This document shows positions 1-63,148 of a DNA stretch of 64,000 bases, piece after piece. A model generated the notes under the pieces. The model saw only the letters and a list, made by a program, of their open reading frames with translations, ran no database searches and was not told where the DNA came from. Made by a program: the position numbers and the translations under genes. This stretch comes from Mobula hypostoma (lineage: Eukaryota), in the NCBI RefSeq assembly GCF_963921235.1, contig NC_086097.1, forward strand, positions 31,374,001-31,438,000, in the 5' to 3' direction. The stretch's first letter is position 1, and every line of letters begins with the position of its first letter.

Positions 1-235
1 TAATCTCAGAAATACTGATATGGTAGTTAGCACACAAATATCTTCTGTTCAAGATTCAGCTTGCTGTCTTTCACACCAAGACCATCTTTTATGCAGTAAA
101 TGCTCCAAATCATGAATAGTGAAACACATACATATTCAATCACACTGTAAATCTGAAATGCTCAAACACATATAATATGAGCACAAAACATTATAAAACA
201 AATCTTAAACGGATTTTCTGTATCCGTATTTACTC

Positions 236-4999: not shown

Positions 5000-5215
5000 C
5001 CTACCAGTTTATACCCCTACTCCTACCCCTACCCCTACCCCTGCCCACCTTCTCATTCTGGCTTCTCCCCCTTTCTTTTAGTCCTAATGAAGGGTATTGG
5101 CCTGAAATGTCGACTGTTTATTCCTCTCCGTAGCTGCTGCCTGACCTGCTGAGATCTGCCAGCATTTTGTGTGTGTTGCTCTAGATTTCCAGCATCTAAA
5201 GAATTTCTTGTGTTT
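5000..5215 (+). mobile_element. Old Penelope-type pseudo-LTR fragment with decayed hammerhead (5080-5116)
   Basis: agtcctaatgaagggtattggcctgaaatgtcgactg, followed by the pLTR 3' sequence shared with young copies. Confidence 0.7.
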
Positions 5216-17606: not shown

Positions 17607-17919
17607 ACATAAACACGAGGAATTCTGCAGATGCTGGAAATTCAAGCAACACACATCAAAGTTGCTGGTGAACGCAGCAGGCCAGGCAGCATCTCTAGGA
17701 AGAGGTACAGTCGACGTTTCGGGCTGAGACCCTTCGTCAGGACTAACTGGAGGAAGAGCTAGGAAGAGATTTGTAAGTGGGGGGGGGAGGGGAGATCCAA
17801 AATGATAGGAGAAGACAGGAGACGGAGGGATGCGCTCCATTGGCCTGAAACGTCGACTGTACCTCTTCCTAGAGATGCTGCCTGGCCTGCTGCGTTCCCC
17901 AGTAATTTGATGTGTGTTG
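17607..17919 (-). mobile_element. Penelope pseudo-LTR insertion with inverted 5' segment
   Basis: pLTR on minus strand (17611-17832) plus inverted partial copy (17842-17919); 14-bp TSD ctatgcacagcaga (17593-17606, 17920-17933). Confidence 0.88.
17708..17744 (-). ncRNA. Minimal type-I hammerhead ribozyme motif
   Basis: Minus strand: AGTC CTGACGA AGGGTCTCAGCCC GAAAC GTC GACTG. Confidence 0.75.
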
Positions 17920-17959
17920 CTATGCACAGCAGAGTCAGTTCGGTGTGGAGGTGAGTGAG

Positions 17960-18460: not shown

Positions 18461-20499
18461 AAAAAGTAGAGACTATAAACCCATTGGAATTCAATATACA
18501 AGAATTGATTTATTGTTGTCACACCTACCAAGATACAGTGAAACGTTTTTGTTTGTGTGCCATCGAGACAGATCATTCTATACACATGTACATCAAGGTA
18601 GAAACTGAATGCAGAATATTGTGTTAGTAACCGAGAAAGTGCAGTGCAGGTAAACTAATAAAGTTCAAGGGCTATGACAAGGTAGGTTGGATGATCAAGT
18701 GTGTTTCTCCCTGTGCAGGAGGTCCATTCAAGAGTCTGACAGCAGTGGGAAAAGAAGCTGCTCGTGAGCATGGTATTATGTATTCTTTTGCATCTTCTGC
18801 CCAACATGAGAGAGAGGAGTGCGTGACCAGATGGGAGGGGTCCTTGATTAAGCCAGCTGTTTTACTGAGGCAGCAGGAATGATCAGTGGAATCAGAGGAG
18901 GGGAGGGTGGTTTGTACGGACCAGGCTGTTTTCACAACTCTGCTCAGTTTCTTGCTGTCATGGGCAGAGCTTCTGCCACACCAAGTCACGATGGGGCAAT
19001 TTCTATGGTACAATTATAAAAACTGGCGACATGCCGAATTTACTTAGCCTTCTGAAGAAGCACAGTGAGAAAAAGATTCCATCAAGTTGAACAATGTGGA
19101 ATGAAGAAACGGGGGGGGGGTGGGAAGGGAGTCTTTTGGGGCATGATGGAGGGCTTCTTGAGCAACAATTTCCTGGAGAAAGTCAGCAGGTCAACCAGCA
19201 TTTGTGGGAGGAAATGAATTGTCAAAGTTCCAGATTAAATCCCTTCTTTGGGGTCATTCAGTGCAGGTGCTAGATATTAAGATTCACTTTATGTTCAGCT
19301 GTAGACGCTATGCCTCTATTCACCCTTTGCTTGGCAGACTTCATCATGAATATATTGTCTGAACTTCCACAGCTCCCTTAGTAGCGAATTCTGAAGATTC
19401 AAAGCTCACTGGATGAAGGAAGTTCTTCTCAACTCAGTCCTGATTGGCCAGTTCCGTCATTCCGTGAACATGACTGCTGGATTTAAAATCTAAATCAAGG
19501 AAAAATATCAATTCCATATCTATACTGTCAAGTCCCTTGTTGAATAAGATCTCTTCTCATTCTTTTAAACTCGTGAGAGTGGCGAATGTGGGCTGGAAAG
19601 GCACATGGTGGAACAGACAAATTTGAAAGTAAACATGTGTGGATGAAGTATTTAGTGGCAGATGCTTTGAGGCAGTTCTCAGATAGGTGGCATTATGGAA
19701 CAGGTCTGCAGGCTATAAAGGTACAGATCAGAATCTCAAAGTTCGAAGTAAATTTATTATCAAGTACATTTATGTCACCATATACAACCATGAGGTTCGT
19801 TTTCTTGGGAGCATATTCAATAAATCTACAATAGAATCAATGAAAGATTGCACCAACTTGGGCATTCAAACAATGTGCAAAAGATACAGACTGTACAGAC
19901 AAGAAAGAAATTATTAGAAATAAAATAAATCAATAAATATTGAGAACATGAGATGAAGAGTCCTCGAGAATGAGTCCATAGCTTATGGGAATGTTTCAAT
20001 GATGAGGCAAGTGAAGTTGAGTGAAGTTATCCCCTCTGCTTCAAGAACCTGATAGTTGAGGGGTAATAACTATTCCCAAACCTGGTGGGTGTAAGTCCTG
20101 ATGCTCCTGTACCACCTTCGTGATGGCAGCAGCACGAAGAGAGCATGTGCTGGGTGGTGGGGTGTCAACTTGCAATAGGACAAATATACACACAGTCAGA
20201 GTCAAAAAACAGAAACATGTTCTTCAGTCCATCTAGTCCATGCTGAACTATTATTTCGCCCAGTCCCATAGCTTTCCAAATCCCTCCCATCCACGTTCAG
20301 AGTGCAAAGTAAATGTATTAAAGTACATATATGTCCTATACAACCCTGAGATTCGTTTTCTTAAATGCTACGCTCAAACCTGCATCTACCACTTCCTCTC
20401 CCACCTCCCTCTGAGTGAAGAAGTTTCCCCATATGCTCCCCTTAAGTATTTCACATTTCACACGAGGGTTTCTTTACACAGCTTGGAAGGAAAAATGAA

Positions 20500-24120: not shown

Positions 24121-24219
24121 TGAAATCACTGGAGGAACTCAGTCCTGATGAAGAGTTTCAGCCCAAAATGTTAGGTAGATAATATGCTGGGTAAATGTTT
24201 AGTTCCTCCAGCATTGGGG

Positions 24220-25635
24220 TACTCCACTGTGAACCCCAAGGCCCTAAAGGAATGCGCTGAGTAGCTGTGTGGAAAACATCACGCGTGGGCCCAGTACTCA
24301 AGAAAGGCCAACCAAAAGTCTTGAATGACTCCTGGTTGCCCTGACCTTATACATCATGACGACCCTAGAGAGACTGGTCCACGCTCACCTCTAACCCCTG
24401 GTCATATCGGCCCTCGATCCCCTGCAGTTTGCCTACCAGAAGCACACTGGAGTTGATGATGCTGTCACCCACCTGCCGAACAGAGCCTACTCCCATTTGG
24501 ATAAGCAGGGCAGCACTGTGAGGGTCATGTTTTTTTTATTTCTCAAGTGCCACCAATACTGTACAGCCAGCCCTCAATGCTGGTGAAAAGGCTCCGTTCA
24601 ATCCAGGCTGGCACTTTCACTGCATCCTGGATAATGGACTACCTGACTGGCAGACCACAGTTTGTGCAGCTTCAGAGCTGTGTGTCAGACATGGCTATCA
24701 GCAGCACTAGGGCCCACATGGGACTATATTAGCTCCTTTACTGTTTACCCTGTACATCTCAGATTTTAGATATAACACTGAGTCATGTCATCGGCAGAAA
24801 TTCTCTGATGACTCAGCATTAGTTGAGTGTATAAAGGGAGGTCGGGAGGATGAATACAGGGCTCTGGTGGAGAACTTTGTCAAATGGTGCAAACTGAATC
24901 ATCTGCAGCTCAATATCAGTAAGACAAAGGAGATGGTGATGGACTTTAGGAAGACTAAGCCTGCGCTGCTCCCTGTTACTATTGATGGTGAGGATGTGGA
25001 TGTGGTGAGGACTTACAAGGACCTGGGGGTGTACCTAGATGACAGACTTGAGTGGAACACCAACACAGAGGCTACGTACAAGAAGAGCCAGAGTCGCCTC
25101 TACTTCCTGAGGAGACAGAGATCCTTTGGGGTATGCAGGCCTCTCCTTCACATGTTCTACCCATCTGTTGTCGCCAGTACACTCTTCTATGGGTGATGAG
25201 CTGGGGCAATGGCATCAACATCAGTGATGCCAACAGGCTTAACAAAATGATTAGAAAGGCTGGCTCTGTTATAGGAGTCAAAATGGACACACTGGAGGCT
25301 GTGGTAGAACAAAGGACTCTATGGAAAATCCTGTCAATTCCGGACAATGTTTCTCACCCTCTCCATTCTACCTTGGCTGAACAGAGGAGCACTCTTAGTA
25401 AGAGACCAAGATAACTGTGCTGCTCCAAAGAGCACTATACAAGGTCATTCTTACTTTCAGCCATAACGCTCTATGAGTCAACCTATAGCCAGGGAAGTGA
25501 TTATCCCCTCCTGCTGGACTGTTTAAGGTAACCAATTTTTATTCTTTTTACTTCTTTTCTAATATTTGTATATCTGTGCACTTGTAATGCTGTGACACTG
25601 TAATTTCGTTCGGGATCAATAAAAGTATCTGCCTA
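24220..25635 (+). mobile_element. Rex1/Babar LINE (second family), RT region to 3' end
   Basis: LDPLQFAY, QKFSDDSAL and FVKWCKLNHLQLNISKTKEMVMDFRK motifs; tail gggatcaataaaagtatct. Confidence 0.88.
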
Positions 25636-26184: not shown

Positions 26185-26757
26185 GTATACATTGGGAGTT
26201 TCCAAAACTGATTGGGAGATTGCTTTGTTGAGCACCTTCACTCCACCTGCCACAATAGGAGAGATTTCTCAGTAGCCACTCATTTTATTCTACCCTCCAC
26301 TCCCATTCTACTATGTTGGTCCTTGGCCTCGTTTACCGCCAAGATGAGTCGGCTCTGAGGTTGGAACAGCAACAGCTCATATTCCACCTGGGTAGCCTCC
26401 AACCCGACCACGTGAACGTTGATTTCTCTAACATCCGGTCATTTCTTCCCCTCCCCCTTCTTTTTGCATTCCCCAGTCTGGCTCCCCTCTTGCCCCCTTC
26501 CCCTTACCTGTCCATCAACTCCTCTAGTTCCCCGCCTTCTTCCCTTGTCCACTGTCCTCTAATAAGATTCCTCCTTCTTCTTCAGCCCTTTACCTCTTCC
26601 AGCTATCACGAACCAGTTTCTCCCTCCCTCCCTCATTCTGGCTTCTTCCCCTTTTCTTTCCTGATGAAGGATCTCGGTCCAAAATGTCAATGTTTATTCC
26701 TCTCCAGAAGATGCTACCTGACCAGCTGAGTTACTCCAGCAGTTTGACAGTGTTGCT
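26185..26757 (+). mobile_element. Old Penelope-like element 3' fragment
   Basis: LRLEQQQLIFHLGSLQPDHVNVDFSN (end of GIY-YIG domain), plus pLTR with decayed hammerhead at about 26659-26692. Confidence 0.8.
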
Positions 26758-29700
26758 CAAGGAAAATACTTCTACCCTTTACACTTTAACTGGCCAATTT
26801 GGCTGTATAAGTTATCTACAGGCAACAAAAACTCTGTTTTTCTCTCTAGACAGATACTGCCCAAGCCAAACACTCCTTTTGGTTTCAGGACAGGCTAATC
26901 TTCAGTTGCTGGCTCCTGTCTACCTACCTTAACTAGAGGCAGGACGAACTTGAGTAGAACCCCTCTGAGCAGTGGCTAAGGAGAGACCTGATAAAGATTT
27001 TTTTAAATTATGCAAGGTGTACGGTAGATAGGGTAGACAGCCAGAATCTTTACCCTAGTATAGAAGTATGAAATACTAGAGGATACGTGTTCCAGGTAGT
27101 TTAAAGGCAACATGTGGTGAATTTTTGGTAAGCAGGGGCAGATGCCTGAAACAGGTTACCAGGGATAGTAGTGGAAAATTAGGCAGAGCTTGAGGCTTTT
27201 AGATAGACATAAAAGTATGAAGAGATTGGAGGGGTATGGATGATACACAGGAAATATAAATTTAGTGTAAACTAGAATCAGTATCAGCACAACACCATGA
27301 GTCAAATGGCCTGTCCAGTGAGATCTGATTAATCAGATGAGTCCACAATCACCTGGGAAACCCAGTCCCCACCCCGACAGCAATAATCCCTTTGTCCAAC
27401 CCCTTCTTCCCCCATTGTGTTTGCAACTTAAAACAGTTAAAATTTGTCAACCATATCTTTACTTCCTCACTTCCTCAAGTTCTGACGAAGGACCTTTGAC
27501 CTGAAATATCTGTTTCTCTTTCCAGTTGCTGTTGGACCTGCTAAGTGCTTCCAACATACAAGCATTTGAAAAAGGAAAAGGAATACGCCACTTGACCCAA
27601 ATCTGTTCTGTTATTTGAATAATCACTGACTTCACCACATCTAAATCAGTGAAACTAAATGATTGAACTCTGCATTCACTACCCCAGTCACCTTTCACCT
27701 CCTCGCTTATCAAGAATCCATCTATACCTTAAAACATTCAATGATTCTGTTCCTCAAAAGAGAGCTGGAAAGGAGTATAAAGACCCTCCAAGATAGAATA
27801 AAAATTTCACATCAGTCATAAAAATCGATCATCGACAGTATTAAAAGCATGGGAGATCCATTACCTTTAAGCACCATTATAGTTCTAAATCCTCCCACAG
27901 GAAGAAATATCCTCTTCACATCCACAGCATTGAGATCCCTCAAGATCTTACAAGATCTTGCCATCGTCTCCTTTCCACTCATCTCAACTGTAGTGGATAA
28001 AATCCAGCCCAAAAAAGAAACCTTCCCAATAAGGCACAGGCACGTGGATAGAAAGGGTCTGTCCTGGAGTGATGTAGGCCAAACGCAGGAAAATGAGACT
28101 AAATCAGATAGACATGTTGGTCGGTATAGACGAGTTGACCCAAATGACATGTTTCGGTGCTGAACATTCCAGGTATTATCCAGATTCAGATTTACTTATC
28201 ACGTGTACATACACTGAAAGGTGGCGTGAAATGCATTGTTTGTCTTAACATCCAACACATCCAAGGATGTGCTGAGGGCAGCCCACAAGTGTCATCACAC
28301 ATTACAGTGCCAACATAACATGCCCACAATGTTCAACACAGCAAAAGAACAAAACAAGCCCCTTTCTCACACACAGGCCTCCACTCCCAGGTAAGACCTC
28401 TTCCAGGCCTCCAGCCCTTAGCCCTAGACTCCCAAACTTGCAGACATTGGTCCTCCAACCTACAGTCTCTGGCTCAGACTCCTAATATATCTGAACCACT
28501 TCTAATGTATCAACTTGCTTCATCAAAAAAAATGACCTACGTGCGGTGTTCACACTGCATTCCAATGTGCTTCTCACAATTGCCTTTTAAAACAGAGGTA
28601 CAATCTTCTTACTTTTTGTGTTCAATTCCCCTAATAATTAGTGAATTGTTAACATTCCTAAATACCTCCTCCACTTAGATACCAGCCTTTGCAAACTATG
28701 CACAGAGATCCTTATCCCTCTGCTTCCTCTCACTAGAGATATTTATCGGTTTTTTCTTCCAGAAGTATCAAGGTACAATGAAGAACTTTGCTTTTACCAG
28801 TCACCCATATAGATAATTTCAGTCCAACAGTGCATCGATGTAGCACAAAGGAAAGACTAACAGAATGTAGAATAAAGTGTTGCAGTTACAGAGAAAGTGC
28901 AGTGCAAGAAGACAATAAAGTTCAAGCCCAAAACAAGGTAGATTATACATTAAAGTGGACAATAGTCCTATAATAGTGGCTTAGAAGCTGCACTTGAGCC
29001 TATTGGAACATGCTTTAGGCTTTTGGCTAATAGGAGGGAGAAGTAGCAAGATTGCCCAGAGTGGATGGGGTTTTTTTTTGATTATGCTGTCTGCTTTACT
29101 GAGGCAGTGAGAAGTGCAGGCAGGGACAATGGAGGGGAGGCTGGTTTCCATGATGTGATGAGCTGTGTCCACTCTCTGCAGTTCCTTGTAGTCTCAGGCA
29201 GAACAGCTGCCATACCAAGCCATGATGTGTCCAGATAGGATGATTTCTGTGGTGCATCAATAAAACTTGGTGAGGGCCAAAGGGTCATGCCAAGTTAATC
29301 AGCCTCCTAAGACAACAGAAGCACTGGTGAGCTTTCCGGCCGTGACATCTATGTGGTTGGAACAGGACTGGCAGTTGATGTTCACACTTAGGGATTTATA
29401 GCTTTCGATCCACTCTACCTCAGTATTGTTGATGTAAACAGGAACATGTGCACTGCCTGCCCCCCCACCATGCATCCCTCTTTCATGAAGTCAATAACCA
29501 GGTTTTTTGTTTTACAGATTTTGAGGTCATAAATTGTGTTACTTTCCCTACTGAAAATAATAACTTCACCTTTCAACACATATTCTATTTTCCTCCTCTT
29601 GCCCATTGACTACACTTATTCAGTTCCCTCTGTAGCTTCCCATGTCCTTTCCACAACATACTTTTCTACTTGTCATCAGCAAATTTGTCAACCATATCTT

Positions 29701-30852: not shown

Positions 30853-31402
30853 GCAACACACACACACACACACACACACAGTACTAGAGGAACTCAGCAG
30901 GTCAGATATCATCAATGGAGAAAAATGCACAGACAACATTTTGGCCTCAGACCTTTCATCATATGGAAAGGAAGGGGGAAGAATCCAGAATATTATGGGG
31001 AGGGGGACTGAAGTAAGAATCTGGAAGGTGATAGGTGGAAGGTGTAAAGGACTGAAGGAGGGATCTAATAGGAGATGACAATGGACCATGGAAGAACAGG
31101 AAGAGAGGAAAGGAACTGAGGGAGGTGAAGAACAGGTGAGAAGGGGTAAGCGGGGAACCAGAATGGGGAATGGAAAATGAGGCAAGTGGGGGGAGGGGGG
31201 AGGTATTGGAAGTTGGAGAAATCAATGTTAATGCCATCAGGTTGGAGACTACCAGACAGAATACAAGATATTGCTCCTCCAACCTGAGTATGGACTCACA
31301 TGGCAACAGAGGCAGCCATGGACCAACATGTAGGAATGGGAGTGGAAAGTGGAATTAAAATTGGTGGCCACCAGGAGATCCTACCTTTGTGGTAGACAAA
31401 GC
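30853..31402 (-). mobile_element. Old Penelope-like element 3' fragment
   Basis: ILRLEEQYLVFCLV.. followed by pLTR; (CA)n expansion at 30857-30880. Confidence 0.78.
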
Positions 31403-33547: not shown

Positions 33548-33700
33548 AACACAAGAGATTCTGCAGGTACTGAAAATACAGAACAATACACACAAAATGC
33601 TGGAGGAACTCAGCAAGTCAGATAGCAGCTACGGAAAGGAATAAACAGTTGACATTTCAGGCCAAGACCCTTCATCAGGACTGGAAAGGAAGGGAGGAAA
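33548..33700 (-). mobile_element. Penelope pLTR fragment with near-intact hammerhead (33646-33683)
   Basis: Minus strand: CAGTC CTGATGA AGGGTCTTGGCCT GAAAT GTC AACTG. Confidence 0.72.
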
Positions 33701-34473
33701 AAATCATATTATGAGAGGCATTGATAAGAGTAGGCAGCCGATGTCTCTTCCCAAAAACTCCTTCCCACCAGGGTCACTGCCTGGCACTTTTGCAAAGCTT
33801 CTTTATTCTAAACCCAGGAGAAGGACGTTTTAATCCACTGAGTCCATCCCACCTCCAATGGAAGACTGTCCATCCACCCATACTCTTTTACCTTTATTTC
33901 CCTGCTGCCTTGCAACTTATTCTCTTATGCTATTCTAATCACCATTTTACAGTAAGGATGTGGGGGGCTTTGATGAGGGTGCAAAAGAGGTTTATCAGGA
34001 TATCCCCTGGATTAAAGGATATGTGTTCTTGTGAGATTGGATAAAATTGTGTTGTTTTCACTAGAGCAGTGGCAGCTGAGGGGAGACCTGACAGAGGTTT
34101 ATAAAATTATGGAGAGGCATCCATAAGAGTAGGCAGCTGATCTCTTCCCTCAACGCCATGAAACCACCCCCCCCCAAGATCAAAATGTCGAATACCAGAA
34201 GGAATAGATTTGAGGTAGGCATAGCATATTCAAAGGAGATGTCCGAGGCAAGTTAGAGTCAGAGAGTAAGCTCATTGAGCTCATACCTAGTCCCCATTCA
34301 CCTGCACCTGGACCACAGCCCTCCACACCCCCCATCCAAACTTTTCTTAAATGTTGCACTTGTTCCACACTCACACCACTCTGAGTGAAGAGACTCCCCC
34401 TCAGGTTCCTCTAAAAATTTCACCAGTCACCCAACCACAGTGGAAAAAGCCTACTTGCAATTTACTCTATCTG

Positions 34474-35345
34474 CGAGGGGTGATTGATAAGTTTGCGGCC
34501 TAAGGTAGAAGGAGTCAATTTTAGAAAACCTGGCACATTTACTTTTCAACATAGTCCCCTCCTACATTTACACACTTAGTCCAGCGGTCATGGAGCATAC
34601 GGATCCCTTCTTTGTAGAAGTGGTCCACAGCAGGGGTGATTGATAAGTTCGTGGCCTAAGGTAGAAGGAGATGAGTTTTTAACTTCAAACTTTCTGCATT
34701 TTCACTCAGAGTTGAACTGCACATGCATGTAACGAGAGCATCTTGGACCTCCAGAAAGTGGTCCACAGCAGGGGTGATTGATAAGTTTGTGGCCTTAGGT
34801 AGAAGGAGACGAGTTATACAGCTCTCGTCACGTGCACGTGCAGTTCAACTCTGGGTGAAAATGCAGAAAGTTTGAAGTTAATAACTCATCTCCTTCTACC
34901 TTAGGCCACAAACTTATCAATCACCCCTGCTGTGGACCACTTTCTGGAAGTCCAAGACACCGACTTCTACAAAGAAGGGATCCATATGCTCCACGACCAC
35001 TGGACTAAGTGTGGAAATGTACGAAAGATAAATGTAAACACAGGAATTCTGCAGATGCTGGAAATTCAAGCAACATACATCAAAGTTGCTGGTGAACGCA
35101 GCAGGCCAAGCAGCATCTATAGGAAGAGGCGCAGTCGACGTTTCAGGCCGAGACCCTTCGTCAGGTAGTCCTACCTGACGAAGGGTCTCGGCCTGAAACG
35201 TCGACTGCGCCTCTTCCTATAGATGCTGCTTGGCCTGCTGCGTTCACCAGCAACTTTGATGTATGTTGGTTGAAAAATAAATGTGCTAGGTTTTCTAAAA
35301 TTGACTCTTTCTACCTTAGGCCATGAACTTATCAATCACCCCTCA
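34474..35345. mobile_element. Mariner-derived palindromic MITE with internal TIR copies
   Basis: TIR cgaggggtgattgataagttt..cctaaggtagaaggag at both ends and three internal copies; both arms carry the mariner transposase C-terminus (FYKEGIRMLHDRWTKCVNVGGDYVEK* on minus; FYKEGIHMLHDHWTKC on plus). Confidence 0.88.
35036..35271. mobile_element. Palindromic Penelope pLTR insertion with two back-to-back hammerhead cores
   Basis: Perfect 98-bp inverted arms (35071-35168 / 35171-35268) with 2-nt spacer; flanked by gaaagataaatgt / gaaaaataaatgt (12/13). Confidence 0.9.
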
Positions 35346-40644: not shown

Positions 40645-41068
40645 TACCTCGTTATGCCCTTGCACTTTATTGTCTACCTGCACTGCGCTTTTTCCAGCTT
40701 TTGCAGAATCTCTTGTGCTTACACTTCATTCTGCACTGTGCTACTGTTTTACCTTGTAACACTTCAATGAACTGTGGTAATGAATTGATCAGTATGAAAC
40801 AGTAAAACAAGTTTTTCCATTGTTCTTTGGTACATGTGATAATAATAAACCAATTTATCAATTTAAAGGAAATGCCCTGGGCAGCCCAATGAAGTAACTT
40901 AAGCAGGAGGCACTGCAGTGTCACCAGCACACAGGGTTTACAGAATCTGAGGGCAATTCACAACCCAGGGAGTTTATAATTCAGCAGGAGCAGAAGAATG
41001 AGGGAAGGGTGTTGCCTGTTTAGGAGACAATGCTGTTCCTGAGTTTAAAACAAGTTGCAGATGGGAGG

Positions 41069-42324
41069 AACACACATAAAAGTTGCTGGTGAACGCAACA
41101 GGCCAGGCAGCATCTCTAGGAAGAGGTACAGTCGACGTTTCGACGAGGGAGATGTCCTCCTTTTTTAAAGAAAGAGGCTCCCCTTCCTCCACCATCAACT
41201 CTGCTCTCAAATGCATCTCCCCCATTTCACGCACATCTGCTCTCACTCCATCCTCCCGCCACCCCACTAGGAATAGGGTTCCCCTTGTCCTCACCTACCA
41301 CCCCACCAGCCTCCGGGTTCAACATATAATTCTCTATAACTTCCGCCACCTCCAACAGGATCCCACCACTAAGCACATCTTTCCCTCCCCCCCACCACCC
41401 CGCTTTCCGCAGGGATCGCTCCCTACGCAACTCCCTTGTCCATTCATCCCCGCCATCCCTCCCCACCGATCTCCCTCATGGCACTTATCCGTGTAAGCGG
41501 AACAAGTGCTACACATGCCCTTACACTTCCTCCCTCACCACCATTCAGGGCCCCAGACAATCCTTCCAGGTGAGGCGATACTTCACCTGTGAGCCTGTGA
41601 GTCGCCTGGGGTGATATACTGTGTCCGATGCTCCCGATGCGGCCTTCTATATATTGGCGAGACCCGACGCAGACTGGGAGATCGTTTTGCTGAACACCTA
41701 CGCTCTGTCCGTCAGAGAAAACAGGATCTCGCAGTGGCCACATATTTTAATTCCACGTCCCATTCCTATTCTGATATATCTATCCACGGCCTCCTCTACT
41801 GTAAAGATGAAGCCACACTCAGGTTGGAGGAACAACACCATATATTCCGTCTGGGTAGCCTCCAACCTGATGGCATGAACATTGACTTCTCTAACTTCTG
41901 CTAATGCCCCACCTTCCCCTCATACCCCATCTATTATTTATTTATATATACACACATTATTTTTCTCTCTCTCCTTTTTCTCCCTCTGTCACCCCTTGCC
42001 CATCCTCTGTTTTTTTCCCCCCTCCCCCTTTTCTTTCTCCCTAGGCCTCCTGTCCCATGATCCTCTCATATCCCTTTTGCCTATCACCTGTCCAGCTCTT
42101 GGTTCCATCCCTCCCCCTCCTGTCTTCTATCATTTTGGATCTCCCCCTCCCCCCTCCCACTTTCAAATCTCTTACTAGCTCTTCTTTCAGTTAGTTCTGA
42201 TGAAGGGTCTCGGCCCGAAACGTCGACTGTACCTCTTCCTAGAGATGCTGCCTGGCCTGCTGCGTTCACCAGCAACTTTTATGTGTGTTGCTTGAAATTC
42301 TAGCATCTGCAGATTTCCTCGTGT
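41069..42324 (+). mobile_element. Young 5'-truncated Penelope-like element (Neptune type) with inverted 5' pLTR piece
   Basis: Linker CKRNKCYTC, then GIY-YIG domain VIYCVRCSRCGLLYIGETRRRLGDRFAEHLRS..QPDGMNIDFSNF*; inverted pLTR at 41069-41142; 14-bp TSD ttgcagatgggagg (41055-41068, 42325-42338). Confidence 0.95.
42193..42229 (+). ncRNA. Minimal type-I hammerhead ribozyme motif
   Basis: AGTT CTGATGA AGGGTCTCGGCCC GAAAC GTC^GACTG; predicted cleavage after 42224. Confidence 0.75.
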
Positions 42325-43545
42325 TTGCAGATGGGAGGGATGTTGTACAAAGATCGGATCTGAAAGACTTGCTAGTTTCAAGGTTTCACCACCATTCTAA
42401 ACACAGAAACCCAATAGCTCACTCAGTAGCATGATATGACTGTTCACATCCACTTGCAGAACACAGGCAGAGTTATGCTTTTATGTCCAAATGATAGCAC
42501 CTCTGATAACCTTACACAGTCACTGAACTGAGATTGAATAGTGATAAACGGCATGTGTAAAGGTTCTGGCAGAAGTGGGACCAGGCTAAGGAGAGAAGAT
42601 GGGAATACCATACCCACTGAGGGTCTTGGGATCGGGTCCTGAGAACTTCAAGCTGTACTCAAACATCAAAACAGGGAAGCACTGAACAATCTGAAATGCC
42701 ATCGTTCATAACACCAGAGCAGGAGCAGGTTAACAGGCCCCTCAAACCTGTCCCACCATTTATCATTATTCATGACTGATCTACCTCAGGCTTTGGCACC
42801 TTTTCTGTGTCAGTTCCTTATAGCTCTAATTCCTCGATTTTTAGGGAAAAAAAATTATGTAAGTCCATCCTAATACTTTCAATGAACTAGCTCCAGAACT
42901 CCCTGCTATAGAAAATTCCAGAGTTTCACTTGCTTAAAGCAGAACAGTGCAGCACAGTACAAGATCTGATCACAAGAGATTTTGCAGATGGTGAAAATCT
43001 TCGAACACACAAAGTGGTGGAGGATGCTACACAGTACAGACCTTTCAGGTCACAACGGTGTGCCAATCTGCTACCCTACTCCAAGACTGATCTAATCCTT
43101 CCCTCTCATGTAGCCCTCCATTCATCTATCATTCACGTGTCTATCCGAGTCTCTAAAATGTGTCAAATTTATCTGCCTCTACCACCACCCCTGGCAGCGC
43201 ACTCTATGCACCAAACACGATGTTAAAAAAAATACACCTCTGGTATTCCCCCCTATACTTTCCTCCAAACACCTTAAAATTATACCTCCTCATATTATCT
43301 ATTTCTGCCTTGGGAAAAGGGTACTAGCTATACATTCGATCTATGCCTCTTATCTTGGACTATCTTACATATTTGTATCTGTGTTATTTTATTATTGAGT
43401 TCATTATTGCACGTTTTTGTGCTGCATCAGATCTGGATTAATAATTATTTCATTCTCCTTTACACTTGTGTACTGGAAATGACATTAAACGATCTTGAAT
43501 TCTGTAAGAAGAGATTTCTGTATATTTCAGGTTTGATTTATCAGG

Positions 43546-43730
43546 AAACAACAGGAATTCTGCAGATGCTGGAAATTCAAGCAACATACATCAAAGTTGC
43601 TGGTGAATGCAGCAGGCCAAGCAGCATCTATAGGAAGAGGCGCAGTCGACGTTTCAGGCCGAGACCCTTCGTCAGGACTAACTGAAGGAAGAGTGAGTAA
43701 GGGATTTGAAAGCTGGAGGGGGAGGGGCTC
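43546..43730 (-). mobile_element. Solo Penelope pLTR fragment
   Basis: 10-bp TSD atttatcagg (43536-43545, 43731-43740); same subfamily as 35036-35271. Confidence 0.88.
43643..43679 (-). ncRNA. Minimal type-I hammerhead ribozyme motif
   Basis: Minus strand: AGTC CTGACGA AGGGTCTCGGCCT GAAAC GTC GACTG. Confidence 0.78.
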
Positions 43731-45150: not shown

Positions 45151-45367
45151 AGATAAAAAAAATATGGCCTGATGCAGGGTTCCAACTGTAGATGTCAACA
45201 ATTCACTCCATCCTCCTTCCCACAGATGTTGTCTGATCCACTGAATACCTCCAGAAGCTTGTTCTTTTCTTCTGATTATGCATACTGTTTCTGGGGTTAG
45301 GACTATCCATTGTGCTAAACTTATTCCCATGATGCAAACATATTGTACTTATAGACAACGTCCAAAT

Positions 45368-45882
45368 GCCCATGGCCTCCTCCACTGCCTCGATGAAGCC
45401 AAACTCAGGTAGAAGGAGCAACACCTCAAATTCCATCTGCGTAGCCTCCAACCTGATGGCATGAATATCAATTTCTCCAACTTCCAGCAATTTCTCCTCC
45501 TCCCTTTTTCCCTTTTCCATTCTGGATCCCCTCTCACCCCTTTTATTCACCTCACTTGCCCATCAACTCCCTCCAATTCCCTCTGCCTTCCCTTTCTCCC
45601 ATAATCCACTGTCCCCCTCCTGTCAGATTCCTTCTTCTTCAGTCCTTTACCTCTTCCACCCATCACCTCTCAGCTCCCCACTCCCATCCACCTTCCCCCT
45701 CACCTGGTTTCACCTATCACCAGTCAGCTTGTACTCCTTTCCCTCCCTCACCTTCTTATTCTGGCACCTGCCCCCTTTCTTTTCAGTCCTGACGAAGGTT
45801 TTCGGCCTGAAACCAGCACTGTTTACTCCTCACCATAGACTCTGTCTGACTTGCTGAGTTCCTCCAGCATTTTGTATGTGAT
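45368..45882 (+). mobile_element. Old Penelope-like 3' fragment with hammerhead core (45784-45821) lacking the GUC site
   Basis: EQHLKFHLRSLQPDGMNINFSNF; cagtcctgacgaaggttttcggcctgaaaccagcactg. Confidence 0.8.
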
Positions 45883-47409: not shown

Positions 47410-49960
47410 TATGGGAGAAAGAAGCATCACACAACACTAGTGCCCAATGGCTGAAAGACCAACAAACAAGCCTCTGCAATCTCCCACAGGAAGAACCAGT
47501 CACCATCACAGCAGTAGATGCGCAGCAAGGGGTAGCAAGTATGAAGAACTGGACATCACCAGGGCCTGTCATGATCCCCACCTACCAACTGAAGAAACTA
47601 ACAGCATTACATACATGGCTGGCAGCTCAAATGAGCCAGCTGCTTGAAGCAGGCCCCTACCCTGACTGGCTAACTCAAGGAAGGACAGTACTCATAATGA
47701 AGGAGCCTCACAAAGGAGCAACACCATCAAACTAATGGCCTATGACTTGCCTGTCAACAACATGGAAGCTCCTATCAGGCATCATAGCCACCAAACTGAA
47801 GAAACACTTGTGTAAATTCCTGAGCTCTGCTCAGAAAGGGATTGGCAATAGAACCAGATGCTCCAAGCACCATCTACTGGTAGACAAAGCAGTCATGTGA
47901 GACTTCAAGACCAGCCATCCAACCTATGCACAACCTAGATCAACTACCAGAAAGCATATGACTTAATGCCTGTCTCTGTACAGGGTCAACAAGACACTAA
48001 GGACCTTCATCAAGAACTCAATGGACCAGAAAGTTAAGTCAAAGCCAATAGCACAAGTGACCATCAGATGTGGAATATACCAGGGTGATGCACTAACCCC
48101 ACTGCTGTTCTGCATAGGCTTGAAACCCCCCCCCCCCAAGCCAATCATCTCAAAGAGTGGATACGGGTACAGGTTCAAGAGTGGGGTGACCATCAGCCAC
48201 CTCCTGTACATGAATGACATCAAGCTGCATACCAGTGTTGGCACGTGGCCAAGTGGTTAAGGCGTCAGTCTAGTGATCTGAAGGTCGCTAGTTCAAGCCT
48301 CAGCTGAGGTAGCATGTTGTGTCCTTCAGCAAGGCACTTAACCACACATTGCTCGCAACGACACCAGTGCCAAGCCGTATTGGCCCTAGTGCCCTTCCCT
48401 TGGACAACATCGGTGGCATGGAGAGAGGAGACTTGCAGTAAAGGCAACTGCCAGTCTTCCATACAACCTTGCCCAGGCCTGCACCCTGGAAACCTTCCAA
48501 GGTGCAAATCCATGGTCTCACAAGACGAACGGGTGCCTATTGGAATACCAGAAATGGAAGAGACTTTGACTCAGTAATCCACCTGACAAAGGTCTACAGC
48601 AGAGACATCGAGATGGCATTTGGACTGGAAAAGTGAAGCCCAATAGTAGTGAAAAGAGGCATGCTCATTAAGACTGAAGGAGTCGAGTTACTTTAAGGCC
48701 ACATACCAGATGTTCAGGACAACTAATACCTGGGGATCCTGCAGGTGCATGGAAGCCATGATGAGGACACAACAAGAACCTCCAAAGAGTGAGATAGGTC
48801 CTAAAAAGCCAGCTGAATGGGAAGAACAAGATCAGAGCCATCAACACATTCGTCCTACCAGTCATCAGATACCAAGGCACAATAGTATACTGGCCAAGGA
48901 ATGAACTGGAAGCCGCTGACATCAAGAACTGGAAACTAGTAACAATACATGGAGGATTCCATCCAAAGTCCAAGATCAAGAGACTGTGCACCCCTCAGAA
49001 CAAAGGAGGACAGGGCCTTGGAACCAAGGCCACAGTCCTGGAAGCAATGAGAAAACATCCATGAGTATGTCAGGAAGATGGACCCCAAGGATGACCTGCT
49101 AGGAGAATACCCCAGGCAGCAGGCAGGGAAAATGGAAATGGAAGAGGGTGAAGCAGAGCAAGAGGACCAGAGGCCATGGCAGGACAAGCCACTACACAGG
49201 ATGTACCACTGCCAGATATCAGAGCTGGCTGAAACAAGGAAGTCCTACCAATGGCTGGGAATGGCAGGGCTGAGGGACAGCACAGGGGCACTGCTCAAGG
49301 CTGCACAAGAGCAACAGGAGCAGGGGTCTATCACACCAGACATGACCCAAGATGCAGACTGTGCAAGGAATCCACTGAAACCATCCAGCACATAGTAGCA
49401 GAATGCAAGATGCAGGCAGGGATAGCATACACTGAATGGCACTGTGTAAAGGAATTGCGTACAGGAACATCTGCACCAAGTACGGATTGGACACTCCCAA
49501 GTCCAGATGAGGAACACCCAAGAAGGTAGTGGAGAATGTCAGAGCCAAGATCCTGTGGGACTTCCAAATACAGACTGATAAGCAGGTACTGGCCAACCAA
49601 CCAGACATAGAAACAGAAGAAAGCAATGGTAATAGAGGAGGCAATCCCAAATGACAGTAACATCAAATAGAATACAACAAGGTGGAGAAATACTAGGGCT
49701 TGAAAGAGTAGATAGAAAGGATGCGAAGGTTAAAGCCAGAATAACCCCAGTGGTGATAGGAGCACTTGGAGATGTGACACCTGGATTGGGAGACCGGCTC
49801 CAACAAATCCTGGGAACAACATCTCAGATCTCAGTCAAAGGAGTGCACTACTAGGCCACTGCATCAAACCCTCAAGCTCCCAGGCCTCCGGCAGAGGACT
49901 CGAGATTAAGAGAAAAATACACATACACCACCCATAAGGGGTGAGAAAAATAATAAAAAT
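47410..49960 (+). mobile_element. R4/Dong-clade (Rex6-like) non-LTR retrotransposon, 5'-truncated and degenerate
   Basis: RT motifs KNWTSPGP, PDWLTQGRTVLIMK, GIYQGDALTPLLFCIGL and ISHLLYMNDIKL; CCHC knuckle CRLCKESTETIQHIVAEC; restriction-like endonuclease KILWDFQIQTDK..NQPDI..PVVIGALG. Confidence 0.88.
48236..48544 (+). mobile_element. tRNA-derived SINE inserted in the R4 element
   Basis: A box tggccaagtgg, B box gttcaagcc, CORE-like gtgtccttcagcaaggcacttaacc; 7-bp TSD ataccag (48229-48235, 48545-48551). Confidence 0.85.
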
Positions 49961-50890: not shown

Positions 50891-51222
50891 TAGGTAAGTA
50901 TCATAAACAAGGCAACAGCAGTTGAAGGTGAGAGAAGAAATACATGTAGAGTGGAGAGCATTCTGACTGGTTGTATCACCATCTGGTATTGAGGCTCCAA
51001 TATACAGGATCAGGGAAAGCTGCAGAGCATTGTAGCTCCAACACACGCACAATCCTTCCCTACTATTGAGTACATCTTCAAAAAGGCAGTGCCTCAAGAA
51101 GGTGGTATTAGAACCCCAACCAGCCAGAACATGCCCTTGTCTCCCTACCACCATCAGGGCGGTGGTACAGGAGCCTGAAGACCCACACTCAACAGTTCAG
51201 AAACATCTCCTTCCTCTTCATG

Positions 51223-52499
51223 CAACACACATCAAAGTTGTTGGTGAACGCAGCAGGCCAGGCAGCATCTCTAGGAAGAGGTACAGTCGACGTTTCAGGC
51301 AGAGACCCTTCGTCAGGACTAACTGAAGGAAGAGTTAGTAAGAGGAGGGGGAGGGGGAGATCCAAAATGATAGGAGAAGACAGGAGGGGGAGGGATGGAG
51401 CCAAGAGCTGGACAGGTGATTGGCAAAGGGGATATGAGAGGATCATGGGACAGGGGGTCCGGGGAGAAAGACGGGGGGGCGGGGGAAACCCAGAGGATGG
51501 GCAAGGGGTATAGTCAGAGGGACAGAGGGAGAAAGAGAGAGCGAGAGAAAGAATGTGTGTATAAAAATAAATAACGGATGGGGTACGAGGGGGAGGTGGG
51601 GCATTAGCGGAAGTTAGAGAAGTCGCCGTTCATGCCATCAGGTTGGAGGCTACCCAGACGGAATACAAGGTGTTGTTCCTCCAACCTGAGTGTGGCTTCA
51701 TCTTTACAGTGGAGGAGGCCGTGGATAGACATGTCAGAATGGGAATTGGGACGTGGAATTAAAATGTGTGGCCACTCGGAGATCCTGCTTTCTCTGGCGG
51801 ACAGAGCGTAGGTGTTCAGCAAAGCGGTCTCCCAGTCTGCGTCGGGTCTCGCCAACATATAAAAGGCCACATCGGGAGCACCGGACGCAGTATATCACCC
51901 CAGCCAACTCAAAGGTGAAGTGTCGCCTCACCTGGAAGGACTGTCTGGGGCCCTGAATGGTGGTAAGGGAGGAAGTGTAAGGGCATGTGTAGCACTTGTT
52001 CCGCTTACACGGATAAGTGCCAGGAGGGAGATCAGTGGGGAGGGATGGGGGGGAACGAATGGACAAGGGAGTCACATAGGGAGCGATCCCTGCGGAAAGC
52101 GGGGGGGGGGGGAGGGAAAGATGTGCTTAGTGGTGGGATCCCGTTGGAGGTGGCGGAAGATACAGAGAATAATATGTTGGACCCGGAGGCTGGTGGGGTG
52201 GTAGGTGAGGACCAGGGGAACCCTATCCCTAGTGGGGTGGCGGGAGGATGGAGAGAGAGCAGATGTACGTGAAATGGGGGAGATGCGTTTGAGAGCAGAG
52301 TTGATAGTGGAGGAAGGGCAGCCCCTTTCTTTAAAAAAGGAGGACATCTCCCTCGTCCTGGAATGAAAAGCCTCATCCTGAGAGCAGATGCGGCGGAGAC
52401 GGAGGAATTGCGAGAAGGGGATGGCATTTTTGCAAGAAACAGGGTGAGAAGAGGAATAGTCCAGATAGCTGTGAGAGTCAGTAGGCTTATAGTAGAAGT
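51223..52499 (-). mobile_element. Young 5'-truncated Penelope-like element (Neptune type), nested in a Rex1 fragment
   Basis: YYKPTDSHSYLDYSSSHPVSCKNAIPFSQFLRLRRICS (RT thumb), linker CKRNKCYTC, GIY-YIG domain and pLTR; 15-bp TSD with one mismatch, tccttcc(t/c)cttcatg (51208-51222, 52500-52514). Confidence 0.95.
51284..51320 (-). ncRNA. Minimal type-I hammerhead ribozyme motif
   Basis: Minus strand: AGTC CTGACGA AGGGTCTCTGCCT GAAAC GTC GACTG. Confidence 0.75.
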
Positions 52500-53429
52500 T
52501 CCTTCCCCTTCATGACCAGATTTCTGAATGGTCCATGAACCTCATCTTGCTATTCCTATTTCGCTTTTTTTAAAAAAAATACACATTTATGTAATACATG
52601 GTAATTTTTTTTATGTCTTCACAATATATTGCAGCTGCAAAACAACAAATTTCACGTTATACAAGTCAGTGATAATAAAGCTGATTCTGATTCTAATCCG
52701 ATATCAGCCCAGAAATCCCAATGGTCAGACCACAAAAATGTCATAGCAGAATCTTCCCATTCTGCCCATCAAATATGCTTCGCTATTCAATCTGACTTTT
52801 TCCAACCCTATTGTCCCAAAACCTTAACCCCTTTACCTAAAGAGAATGACAGATTACTGAGTGGTAAAATTACCAATCAAGAACTTATCAATCTCTGCCA
52901 ACATCCATCACTTGCTAACTCATTAACACACTAAGTCCACCAATCTGCATTATCATGAAGATGACTGTGTGTTACTGGAAGTGTGGACCAGTTTCGCAGA
53001 CTGAGTGGGCAATACCCAGAGGGTGGGGGAGAATATTCAGGAACTTGGGTGGCTCTGCAGCCACAGCTGAGTTCTGAAGAAGAAATTTACAAGGTGAAAT
53101 TCCCCACTCTCCCTCCAAACCTAACAGAGGGCACTTTCCTGCTCCTTTTGAACCCAAGTTCAGTAGAAAAGTAGATTACTGCGCAGCATGTGTGTTAAAA
53201 CAAAAGTGTCAAGTGTGTTGAGATACCACCAGAAGTCCAGACAGAGGGTCTTCTGGTCCAGCACCAAAATCCCAAGGCTGTTGGATTATCAAAGTCTTAC
53301 TGTGGTTTATTTTCCAAAGCTTAGGTAATGCTAATAGAGGGGAAAAAATTAGCCAATTTCAAAGTGAACTGGGCAGTTCTGATACATGAAAAGAAATTAC
53401 TCACATGTTGTAGAACGTGATCATGAATC

Positions 53430-55918: not shown

Positions 55919-57591
55919 CAGGTGTCCCCCGCTTTTCGAACGTTCGCTTTACGAAACCTCACTGTTACGAAAGACCTACATTAGTTACCTGTTTTCACTA
56001 ACAGAAGGTGTCTTCACTGTTACGAGAAAAAGGCAGCGTGCGGGAAAAGCAGCGCGCGAAAAAAGGCAGTGCGCGTCCCAAGCAGCCGCTCTCCCTGAGA
56101 ACGGCATTCTAGCCGGCATTGCTTAAACATGTGCCCGTGAGCAACTGTTAGCAAGATGAGCTCTAAGGTATCAGAAAAGCCTAAAAGAGCTCGTAAGGGT
56201 GTTACACTTAGCGTAAAACTAGACATAATTAAGCGCTTCGATCGTGGTGAACGAAGTAAGGACAAAGTGAGTTTGGCTTGTGGAAGTTGACGAAGATGCT
56301 GTTGAAGAGGTTTTGGCATCCCATGACCAAGAACTGATAGATGAAGAGCTGATGCAATTGGAAGAGGAAAGGATAACAATCGAAACTGAATGCAGTAGCT
56401 AACGGACCGAAAGTGAAGTCGTCCAGGAACTGAAAGTGAAGCAACTGCGTGAGATTTTCGCTGCAATGATAAAGTATGACTTTAATTTTGAAAAGGTATG
56501 TCGGTTTAAGGTATATTTGCAGGATGGTTTGAGTGCTTCCAAAGAACTGCATGATAGGAAAATGCGCGAGGCTCAGCAGTCAAGCATACTGTCGTTTTTC
56601 AAGTCTTCCACATCAGCCACAGCAGACGACCAACCTCGACCTTAGAGATCGAGGCAGGCAGTCATAGGAGAAGATGAGCTGCCTGCCCTAATGGAAACAG
56701 ACGACGATGAGATGACACCCCAGTGTCCCACCACCCCAACCCCCGGGCCCTGGACAGATACTGATTCGCGGAGAATGCAGCGGTAGCCGGGAGGCACAAA
56801 GCACATCTTTAAGAAAAAAGCCGAAAAAAACATGCTAATTAATTAGGTGCCACCCGGCACGTAATTGTCAGCCCACATCAGAGGCGATGCAATCGGCAAT
56901 CACCTCTGATCGGGGCCGACAATTACATACCAGGCGGCACCTAATTAATTAGCATGTTTATTTCGGCTTTTTTCTTAAAGATGTGCTGGGTGCGTTCCGG
57001 CCACCACTGTACCCCTGCATGCTTCGCAGATCAGTATCGGTTGGCGGACTGGAGGGTGGGGGCCACTGCACCACCCCAACCTGCGATGACTCAACCTAAC
57101 ACACCATCATTAATGTGATCGGCGCTGTCTTCCCAATTCCTGTAAGTGATACTAACCTGTACATACATTATTTCTACTTTATATAGGCTGTGTATCTTTA
57201 CGTGTTACTTGGTATGATTTGGCAGCTTCATAGCTTAAAGGTTACTGGAGAGAGAGTGTTTCGGCCAAAAGCACTTGCGTGAGATTTTCTGCCGAGAGCG
57301 CTTGCGTGAGATTTTCGCTATGGCAAACAGTGCAGGCAATGGTTGTGGAAAAGTATTTCTACTTTATATAGGCTATGTATTTATCATATCATTTCTGCTT
57401 TTACTATATGTTACTGTTATTTTAGGTTTTATGTGTTATTTGGCATGATTTGGTAGGTTATTTTTGGGTCTGCGAACACACACAAATTTTTCCCATATAA
57501 ATAAATGGTAATTGCTTCTTTGCTTTACGACATTCCGGCTTACGAACCGTTTCATAGGAACGCTCTACCTTCCGATGGCAGGGGAAACCTG
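55919..57591 (+). mobile_element. Internally deleted Tigger/pogo transposon
   Basis: TIRs caggtgtcccccgc / gcaggggaaacctg; TA TSD; ATG at 56156 (MSSKVSEKPKRARKGVTLSVKLDIIKRFDRGER, psq HTH) joined to the C-terminus VEEVLASHDQELIDEEL..QQSSILSFFK; DDE domain missing. Confidence 0.93.
56721..57068. mobile_element. Palindromic hAT MITE nested in the Tigger element
   Basis: cagtg..cactg termini; long internal inverted repeat homologous to 63149-63778. Confidence 0.75.
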
Positions 57592-59214: not shown

Positions 59215-59387
59215 CAACACACACAAAATGCTGGTGAAACTTAGCAAGTCAGGCATTCACCTTCCTGATGAAGGCTCTCAGCCCAAAATGTCAACTGTTT
59301 ATTCCCCTCCATAGATGCTACTTGACCTGCTGAGTTCCTCCAGCATTTTGTGTGTTACTCAAGATTTCCAGCATCTGCACAATCTCA
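59215..59387 (+). mobile_element. Old inverted pLTR mini-element with decayed hammerhead
   Basis: Inverted pLTR end joined to cctgatgaaggctctcagcccaaaatgtcaactg. Confidence 0.65.
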
Positions 59388-61664: not shown

Positions 61665-62604
61665 TAATTCTCTGTAACTTTTGCCACCTCCAAAGGGATC
61701 CCACCACATCTTTCCCTACCCCGCCCCCGCTTTCCACAGGGATCACTCCCTACGCAACTCTCTTGTCCATTTGTCCCCCGCATCCCTCCCCACTGATCTC
61801 CCTCATGGCACTTACCCTTGTAAGTGGAACAAGTGCTACACATGCCCTTACACTTCCTCCCTCACCACCATTCAGGGCCCCAGACAGTCCTTCCAGGTGA
61901 GGCAACACTTCACCTGTGAGTCGGCTGGGGTGATATACTGCGTCCGGTGCTCCCGGTGTGGCCTTTTATATATTGGCGAGACCCGATGCAGACTGGGAGA
62001 CCACTTTGCTGAACACCAACGCTCTGTCCGCCAGAGAAAGCAGGATCTCCCAGTGGCCACACATTTTAATTCCACATCCCATTCCCATTCTGACATGTCT
62101 ATCCACAGCCTCCTCTACTGTAAAGATGAAGCCACACTCAGGTTGGAGGAACAACACCTCATATTCCGTCTGGGTAGCCTCCAACCTGATGGCATGAACA
62201 TTGACTTCTCTAACTTCCGCTAATGCCCCACCTCCCCCGCGTACCCCATCCGTTATTTATTTATATACACACATTCTTTCTCTCTCTCTTTCTCCTTTTT
62301 CTCCCTCTGTCACCCCTTGCCCATCCTCTGGTTTTTTTCCCCCCTCCCCCTTTTCTTTCTCCCTAGGCCTCCTGTCCCATGATCCTCTCATATCCCTTTT
62401 GCCAATCAACTGTCCAGCTCTTGGCTCCATCCCTCTCCCTCCTGTCTTCTCCTATCATTTCGGATCTCCCCTCCCCCCCCCCCACTTTCAAATCTCTTAC
62501 TCACTCTTCCTTCAGTTAGTCCTGACGAAGGGTCTCGGCCTGAAACGTCGACTGTACCTCTTCCTAGAGATGCTGCCTGGCCTGCTGCGTTCACCAGCAA
62601 CTTT
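61665..62604 (+). mobile_element. Young 5'-truncated Penelope-like element (Neptune type)
   Basis: ORF 61681-62223: AFHRDHSLRNSLVH..TYPCKWNKCYTC..VIYCVRCSRCGLLYIGET..QPDGMNIDFSNFR*, followed by pLTR. Confidence 0.93.
62518..62554 (+). ncRNA. Minimal type-I hammerhead ribozyme motif
   Basis: AGTC CTGACGA AGGGTCTCGGCCT GAAAC GTC^GACTG; predicted cleavage after 62549. Confidence 0.78.
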
Positions 62605-63148
62605 AATTCTGCCCCTATATCGTATGGTCAATACCAAGTATGGTCTCACCTGGATTTGATTCCTGAGGCCACAAGATTTTTGTCACATGCCTCGAGGTAC
62701 AGTAAAAAATGACTTACTTAGCATCCATACAGATCAAAGCGTAGCAACAGTGAATTGAAGTAGCACAAGATAAAACAATAACAGCGTGCAGAATCAAACA
62801 TTACAGAGAAACTGCTAGGGTGGTGCAGTCGTACATCGGTAAGCATAATGTCATTACAGCGTAGGCAACCTGGATTCAATTCCACTGTCGTTTGTAAGGA
62901 GTTCCTCCATGACTGCGTAGGTTTCCTTGGGTGCTCTGGTCCCTACCACATTCCAAAGTGGACATAATATGTTGGCGCTATAAGCATGGCGAAACTTGCA
63001 AGCCACCACAATCATATCATTACTGTGTTGGTCGTTGATGTAAATGATGCATATCAAAACATACAGTGAAATGCAAGGGACAAATAAAGCTATTTTCTTT
63101 ATGCAGCTGTAATATGACATCCCAACTCTTGTACTCAATCCCCTGATG

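Follow-up and report, generated by a model that had tools for sequence, protein, structure and literature searches.

The window analysed here, a 64-kb stretch of Mobula hypostoma DNA, carries at 62518..62553 (+) a minimal type-I hammerhead motif, detected by both its sequence and a structural descriptor. Sequence comparisons confirmed that the carrier is a very abundant Penelope-like retrotransposon of a ray, with the motif in its terminal repeat (pLTR). The explanation that we consider probable is that this minimal hammerhead ribozyme (min-HHR) is kept in the master elements, acts with the assistance of protein in a tandem precursor RNA, and leaves the template for insertion uncut.

Hammerhead positions are numbered here by a published figure legend and the standard scheme, in which N7 is a free position. 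In the 62518 copy (+), the 5' strand of helix I (62518-62521, with a U.G extension at 62517/62554) leads into the core CUGACGA (62522-62528), an unpaired A (62529) and helix II (62530-62541), which has a G.U closing pair and a 4-nt loop. GAA (62542-62544), the palindrome ACGU (62545-62548) and C17 (62549) follow, and the predicted cut (62549/62550) precedes the 3' strand of helix I (62550-62553). An earlier reading made from the DNA letters only (hereafter the sequence-only reading) had placed the start of this motif correctly and had included one G too many at its end. The core pattern CTGAYGA-N13-GAAAC matched nine times in the window (eight exactly, one with one mismatch) against 0.68 matches expected, and none of 100 shuffles attained nine. 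The structural descriptor, requiring helix I of at least 4 bp, CUGANGA, helix II of at least 3 bp, GAAA, a palindromic 15-16 segment and UH, picked out five sites in the 64 kb, 17708(-), 42193(+), 43643(-), 51284(-) and 62518(+), whereas 100 dinucleotide shuffles averaged 0.03 sites, with at most 1 in any shuffle. A chance origin of the motif was rejected on both counts. These are the same five sites, two on the plus and three on the minus strand, at which a hammerhead core with a short stem II and a loopless ACGT stem III had been read from the letters; the structure is kept in all five, whereas the literal string given for them is exact in only two (62518 and 43643). An ungapped scan tolerating up to 14 of 37 mismatches returned 14 matches, namely the seven copies named in that reading, the partial inverted arm at 17823 and six decayed copies of a second family (family B).

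The core C3-A9 (CUGANGA) and G12-A13-A14 are present in 5/5 named solitary copies, and the unpaired base between 9 and 10.1 is A in 13/13 scored copies. The closing pair of helix II, 10.1-11.1, is G-C in 5 and G.U in 8 of the 13 aligned copies, with pairing kept in every one; three of the five intact copies are closed by G10.1.U11.1 rather than G-C. ACGU followed by C at position 17, without loop 3, occurs in 7/7 full cores of the family to which these copies belong (family A). Stem I had been described as AGTC/GACT. It forms in all five intact copies, with 5 bp counting wobble pairs, but the letters differ at 42193, where U at 2.1 makes a U.G pair; 17708 and 51284 have one loop II change each, and helix I is lost in the arms at 35132 and 35171. 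In 13 window copies, stem covariation did not exceed that of shuffled data, since 55 of 500 shuffles attained the observed score. An Rfam search at E<=5 gave 12 matches, with zero ribozymes and no hammerhead model, as expected because the motif is without loop 3 and an extended helix I; the mir-3926 and mir-2329 matches are inverted repeats, far under their gathering scores.

The motif fits the published min-HHR consensus, which after a U-rich flank reads NNN CUGANGAH G..C GAAAN palindrome NU H NNN (Cervera & De la Pena 2014, PMC4209133), and the class is thus already known, as had been stated. The likeness to the elements described there extends to the type-I topology, CUGANGA with one unpaired nucleotide, a helix II starting with G, GAAA, the loopless palindromic 15.2-16.2 segment, the short helix I, the U-rich upstream flank, the pLTR position, and the occurrence mostly as solitary truncated copies with some close inverted pairs. 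Published rows (Fig. S3, PMC4209133) likewise include G.U at 10.1-11.1, while helix II has 4 bp in the ray motif versus 5-7 in most vertebrate rows of that report. The window holds 5 intact motifs in 64 kb, and the highest genome-wide counts of the 2014 survey are about 4,000 in coelacanth and 9,000 in Xenopus; should the whole genome resemble the window, there would be about 80 structurally intact motifs per Mb, at least 10 times the largest of those counts. Cartilaginous fishes were absent from the survey rows covered, and in one supplement file the terms shark, skate, Callorhinchus and Leucoraja were unmatched. Our literature search found no paper describing this family of the ray; related motifs may lie in the supplements of a 2026 preprint (Li et al. 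2026, bioRxiv 10.64898/2026.07.22.740005). The kind of motif is already in print, and the addition made here is a host group, the rays, with little description.

A metagenome scan yielded 12 loci (L001-L012) with five unrelated minimal hammerhead types that have the same core and palindrome. Among them the sequence of helix II is variable, its length ranges over 4-7 Watson-Crick pairs (of which the pattern fixes two), and it pairs in 12/12 loci and 5/5 types, a comparison that supports the hammerhead class, not the ray family; none of the 12 loci matches the flanks or the endonuclease found in the window. Eight of them form a single repeat family, in which the upstream flank is conserved.

The 62518 motif lies in a 5'-truncated Penelope-like insertion (61665..62604, +) that ends about 54 nt past the cut site without a tail and has a possible 7-nt target-site duplication (TSD; 61665-61671 / 62604-62610), noted by eye and ambiguous with element sequence. 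The 3' part of the element ORF (61678..62223, +) encodes a CX4CxxC linker and a GIY-YIG endonuclease with CCHH residues, and this frame ends 294 nt before the motif. The Pfam GIY-YIG matches (E=0.0047 for the 61678-62223 frame, and 0.00021) do not reach the curated cut-off. The closest protein relative of the endonuclease frame is 89% identical and comes from Mobula hypostoma; further relatives come from Hypanus, Chiloscyllium and other cartilaginous fishes (14 matches among 202 candidates), and the longer ones extend upstream into sequence read from motifs as RT core and thumb. In the protein alignment the linker is C48-X4-C53-X2-C56, and CxxC and two His are invariant. The motif lies downstream of the GIY-YIG frame in 3/3 long copies, which is the pLTR position and bears out the Penelope terminal-repeat context proposed from sequence. 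High copy number had also been claimed, and about 110,000 and 100,000 contigs aligned to 401 bases in two DNA runs, figures that indicate high copy and are not a count.

A CX2-5CxxC linker between RT and endonuclease marks Neptune and Nematis, which likewise have a C-terminal GIY-YIG domain with CCHH (Craig et al. 2021, PMC8557442), and Neptune and Poseidon are the groups widespread in vertebrates (Li et al. 2026, bioRxiv 10.64898/2026.07.22.740005). The assignment to a Neptune family is in line with this: linker motif and host support a Neptune-type element, the linker being common to Nematis, and given how the linker is defined and how Neptune is spread, the label rests on motif and host, not on an RT tree. 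Four ray or skate proteins labelled as host genes (P0003, P0004, P0009, P0013) contain the element's endonuclease sequence, which suggests that the repeat has been absorbed into ray and skate gene models.

Family A comprises six insertions in the window, with nine fragments overlapping the motif. The longest copy (51220..52500, -) includes the RT thumb, linker and endonuclease, frameshifted, with the motif at 51284-51320, the short 3' end and a 15-nt TSD match with one mismatch. At 41066..42326, an inverted arm that begins at C11.1 (41066-41142, -) adjoins the main copy (41143-42326, +), which carries the motif (42193-42229) and has the long tail; the 16-nt TSD match has one mismatch. The inverted insertion at 17611..17921 has an exact 14-bp TSD; its main arm (-) carries both the motif (17708-17744) and the long tail, and its inverted arm (17842-17921, +) begins in loop II. 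Gapped alignment of the 17842 and 17708 arms gave 5 differences in 79 columns. A short terminal-repeat insertion (43546..43727, -) has the motif at 43643-43679, the long tail and a 10-12-bp TSD. Finally, a head-to-head palindromic insertion at 35036..35268 has two arms, both beginning at motif position 2.1, without a single difference in 95 nt; its helix I is broken, and its 13-nt TSD match has one mismatch. The insertion is nested in another repeat (34900-35035 and 35269-35345), which we take to resemble the end of a Tc1/mariner transposon. Its two cores (35132-35207) had been counted as core-intact motifs; the core letters are indeed there, but they belong to opposite-strand arms of one palindromic insertion with helix I down to 1 bp, and RNA of either strand is predicted to form a hairpin of about 100 bp (about -214 kcal/mol). 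The junction (35165-35174) consists of 4-bp self-complementary arms flanking a 2-nt loop; alternatively, its + arm can be taken as a helix I 5' strand with a 4-nt insertion. The junction is similar to self-priming palindromes of rotifer Penelope elements (Arkhipova et al. 2013, PMC3846280).

A script detected TSDs matching over 10-16 nt in 5/6 family-A insertions, compared with 8-10 bp in rotifer elements (PMC3846280). Inverted arms occur in 3/6, and the tail (36 nt) is on just one arm of each. Inverted 5'-truncated arms, one-end tails, palindromic junctions and TSDs are alike in Penelope elements described elsewhere (PMC8557442; PMC3846280). The 64-kb window contains no full-length or tandem element, and the arrangement of the precursor is therefore assumed. 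About 31% of the window is self-repeated; it also holds fragments of other non-LTR retrotransposons (7643-8636, 11390-12268, 22774-23250, 24711-25196 and 49233-49526, with RVT_1, zf-RVT and ALKBH8_N matches), a tRNA-like match under its gathering score that is probably a SINE head (48244-48306, +) and a short inverted repeat (56863-56924).

Relative to C17, family-A fragments end at +64..68 (n=4), at +101/102 (n=4) and, in the 62518 copy, at about +54, and they begin at about -8, -12/-14, -28, -28, -79, -119, -884, -1081 and -1211. The predicted cut site is thus read through in 9/9 fragments, and 0/9 begin at +1, in what is a small sample. Short and long 3' ends, together with tails on one arm only, are explained by two internal RT start sites, which account for the tail pattern of Poseidon_Ac (PAc) in Anolis carolinensis (Frangieh et al. 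2024, PMC11167929). As reported for PAc, the hammerhead lies upstream of two internal RT starts, the tail is 30-40 nt long and the template is uncut RNA, the last being indicated in the ray element by fragment read-through; PAc differs in belonging to the Poseidon clade and in an ORF that starts in the motif, compared with the Neptune-type linker of the ray element, whose ORF start lies outside the window, and the activity of PAc has been demonstrated (PMC11167929). By this model the insertion template would not be produced by cutting; RT would begin about 66 and 102 nt past the cut site and traverse the uncut motif. The short 3' end (+66; 42264-42300 and equivalents) coincides with the foot of a predicted hairpin, and the two RT start sites share a similar GU-rich word at their ends.

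Copies of an older sister family, B, allowed the motif to be compared with its flanks. Family B fragments lie at 5029..5215 (+; motif 5080-5116, core broken by G5>A), 33548..33720 (-; motif 33646-33682, core letters intact, palindrome and pair 2.1-1.1 lost through CpG decay), 45735..45881 (+; motif 45785-45821, 15-17 segment broken) and, after an endonuclease remnant, 26620..26760 (+; decayed motif 26657-26693); a further decayed motif lies at 24141..24177 (+). Two insertions are inverted, one at 59215..59386 (decayed motif 59261-59297, +) and one at 12339-12453 with an exact 13-bp TSD, whose longer arm is without the motif and begins about 8-10 nt past the predicted cut site. A profile search located more heavily decayed terminal-repeat relics at 19162-19250, 27459-27556, 30870-31040 and 45166-45262. 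Majority rows built from five copies of A and six of B coincide at 34/37 motif positions, all three differences being CpG transitions, and at 53/95 flank positions (19/40 upstream, 10/20 in the next 20 columns, 24/35 further downstream; Fisher p=7e-5 for all flanks, 0.017 for the best flank), a contrast that is inflated because family B copies were chosen largely by motif similarity. The extra core conservation that the sequence-only reading had proposed as its test was hence found between the families. Contigs of four public runs on 42000-42400 have loose ends at 42193 and 42230 in 4/4 runs, which are the outer edges of helix I with family-B-like sequence beyond (among 24 of 1191 rows). These comparisons suggest that master elements preserve the motif though inserted copies derive from uncut RNA.

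Variant shares were calculated as depth-weighted sums over contigs of the four public runs and are not copy counts; runs X11 and X17 were guessed to be RNA, and X17 was flagged 'probably DNA'. The two DNA runs gave 11.9/14.5% for G12>A, 11.3/12.1% for C15.2>T, 13.2/14.6% for G16.2>A, 10.2/11.1% for C17>T and 11.4/11.8% for G1.1>A, compared with 12.3/10.2% and 15.1/7.4% at control CpG downstream of the motif. Family-wide, C15.2, G16.2, C17, G1.1 and the control CpG outside the motif range over 4-15%. The catalytic CpG shares equal those of the control, indicating that inserted copies decay neutrally, and genomic copies give no hint that activity is selected either for or against. C11.1>T reached 43.6/35.0% in the two DNA runs, where C is the majority letter at most at 56% and 65%, and N7 is mixed C/U (C 60/54%). 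Across the family, C11.1>U, which keeps the pair as G.U, stands at 35-60% versus 7-15% for G12>A in the same CpG. This pattern is suggestive of C11.1>T and N7 being variants amplified by masters, both compatible with the fold; the CpG argument concerns two amplified variants, for which the rough chance of both falling at tolerated positions is about 0.2 (G8 is not among the listed variant rows).

The family had also been called recently active. One subfamily pair fits that description, since the 43643 and 35132 copies differ at 1/95 bases; however, the three long copies differ by 7.1-8.5%, and the family is present in a second organism with similar variant shares. Judged from these distances, the family has been active over a long time, with a young subfamily among its products. 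A>G shares at 42231, 42241 and 42043 are greater in the RNA-guessed than in the DNA runs (42241: 14% and 12% versus about 3%), and CpG decay in the RNA-guessed runs is about half that of the DNA runs. The raised A>G could reflect expression of the young subfamily or A-to-I editing of inverted repeats, two sources that contigs cannot separate. The ratio of motif depth to that of the 40 nt downstream came to 0.42 in each of the RNA-guessed runs and to 0.70 and 0.86 in the DNA runs; we gave this drop no weight as a sign of cleavage, since the depth of contigs is not comparable between parts of one stretch.

Folding predictions bear on how the motif might act. A lone motif forms helices I and II, yet its core pairs with 15.2-17 in an inactive hairpin, and with 30-nt flanks it mostly loses helix I. 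A double hammerhead that forms helix I in trans and uses ACGU for helix III is validly nested, at -11 to -18 kcal/mol. In 15/15 pairings two free monomers are favoured over it by 8.5-13.5 kcal/mol, according to nearest-neighbour energies that exclude tertiary stabilisation of the core. The ACGU duplex alone gives -1.7 kcal/mol, a value superseded as a dimer measure by the model with helix I in trans. We infer the following for the Neptune-type element: its pLTR min-HHR would be kept up in active master elements, and in a tandem precursor RNA two copies would swap helix I strands and pair via the palindromic ACGU into a double hammerhead that processes the precursor. The ribozyme would most likely work only in this tandem precursor of the masters. 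The element's own protein would probably be needed as a chaperone, because the free RNA favours the inactive hairpin (G5-G8 with 15.2-17). The dispersed copies in the window would be 5'-truncated, dead-on-arrival products decaying at the neutral CpG rate. Published work is consistent with parts of this scheme. The Schistosoma min-HHR is described as inactive as a monomer and of low activity as a dimer (PMC4209133), and the Anolis motif needs the element protein for cutting and shows a working C3G/G8C rescue (PMC11167929). Cleavage as dimers, attributed to the class by the sequence-only reading, therefore stands as a published model, qualified by the low dimer activity reported and by the one tested vertebrate element having needed protein.

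A hammerhead-derived motif might also be retained for a non-catalytic role, as a protein-binding or RT-positioning structure, a promoter or a splice signal, and never cut in vivo. All nine family-A fragments come from uncut RNA and the active fold is disfavoured in the energy predictions, as such a role would have it. Published activity of min-HHRs is low, and the authors allow other functions (PMC4209133); Anolis core mutants still insert normally in vitro, with zero RNA-seq reads ending at the site (PMC11167929); and Naiads are reported to have spread without canonical hammerheads (PMC8557442). However, what is conserved is the catalytic core with both helix I strands, ending at their edges, and the Anolis motif does cut, with C3G/G8C rescue, once protein is added (PMC11167929). 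We regard a purely non-catalytic role as unlikely.

Cutting could instead serve transposition, with cleaved or short circular RNAs yielding many short terminal-repeat insertions in the manner of retrozymes. Non-LTR retrozymes (Li, Clavereau & Pollet 2026, bioRxiv 10.64898/2026.07.22.740005) are likewise pLTR-derived with a type-I hammerhead, and the preprint reports them in one chondrichthyan; they form head-to-tail arrays, whereas the ray copies are scattered, truncated and flanked by TSDs, and three of them retain adjoining ORF sequence. Four of the nine family-A fragments begin inside the motif, 8-28 nt before the cut, and the family B insertion at 12339-12453 begins about 8-10 nt past it, but all four in-motif starts are inverted-arm junctions, a known Penelope structure. 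None of the nine begins at +1, and there is no loose end at 42225 among the 24 of 1191 rows listed. Rare contigs do contain head-to-tail joints leading from the tail back to 42192-42197 (runs X1 and X5: 42286 to 42197, and 42296 or 42325 to 42192/42193, window 42192-42326), so short retrozyme-like head-to-tail units exist, as far as contigs tell, at very low depth elsewhere in the genomes of these runs. A retrozyme array was rejected for the window itself, where 0/7 tandem repeats carry hammerhead units. Cutting as a step of transposition thus seems to us very unlikely.

The sequence-only reading had further supposed that dispersed same-strand copies might pair within an intronic host transcript, and the idea that they would cut host pre-mRNA is the one to which we give least credence. 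Five structurally intact copies, two + and three -, do lie within 64 kb, a double hammerhead between different copies is nested and formally possible, and intact copies are present in the two runs guessed to be RNA. Yet a Pfam scan of the 148 longest of 321 non-repeat frames (all of at least 71 aa; short exons would escape) found no host exon, only retroelement-type domains and two weak matches under the cut-off. Between the closest intact copies on one strand lie 7.6, 20.3 and 25.9 kb, and decay at catalytic CpG equals the control. Every intact copy has, in either direction, an antisense copy in the window, and antisense partners pair at -150 to -416 kcal/mol (six pairs), some within 0.1-1.3 kb, against -11 to -18 kcal/mol for the double hammerhead. 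By these predicted energies long double-stranded RNA is a likelier outcome than a double hammerhead, and this evidence does not support the pairing claim; the scattered copies of the window look like leftovers, not partners cutting host RNA.

A further, very unlikely possibility is that element protein, when expressed, could refold motifs in host pre-mRNAs or UTRs, which would then cut in pairs or in trans; if true, a burst of retrotransposition would thereby have spread an RNA-cutting signal, switched by protein, through the whole genome. The reading that we favour, a motif maintained by masters and processed in their precursor RNA, bears on the in vivo role of Penelope hammerheads. For that question, the abundant ray family, with its two diverged lineages and amplified variants, offers a genomic test system, and it could reveal where in the motif masters differ from one another and whether the cut site has an excess of 5' junctions.
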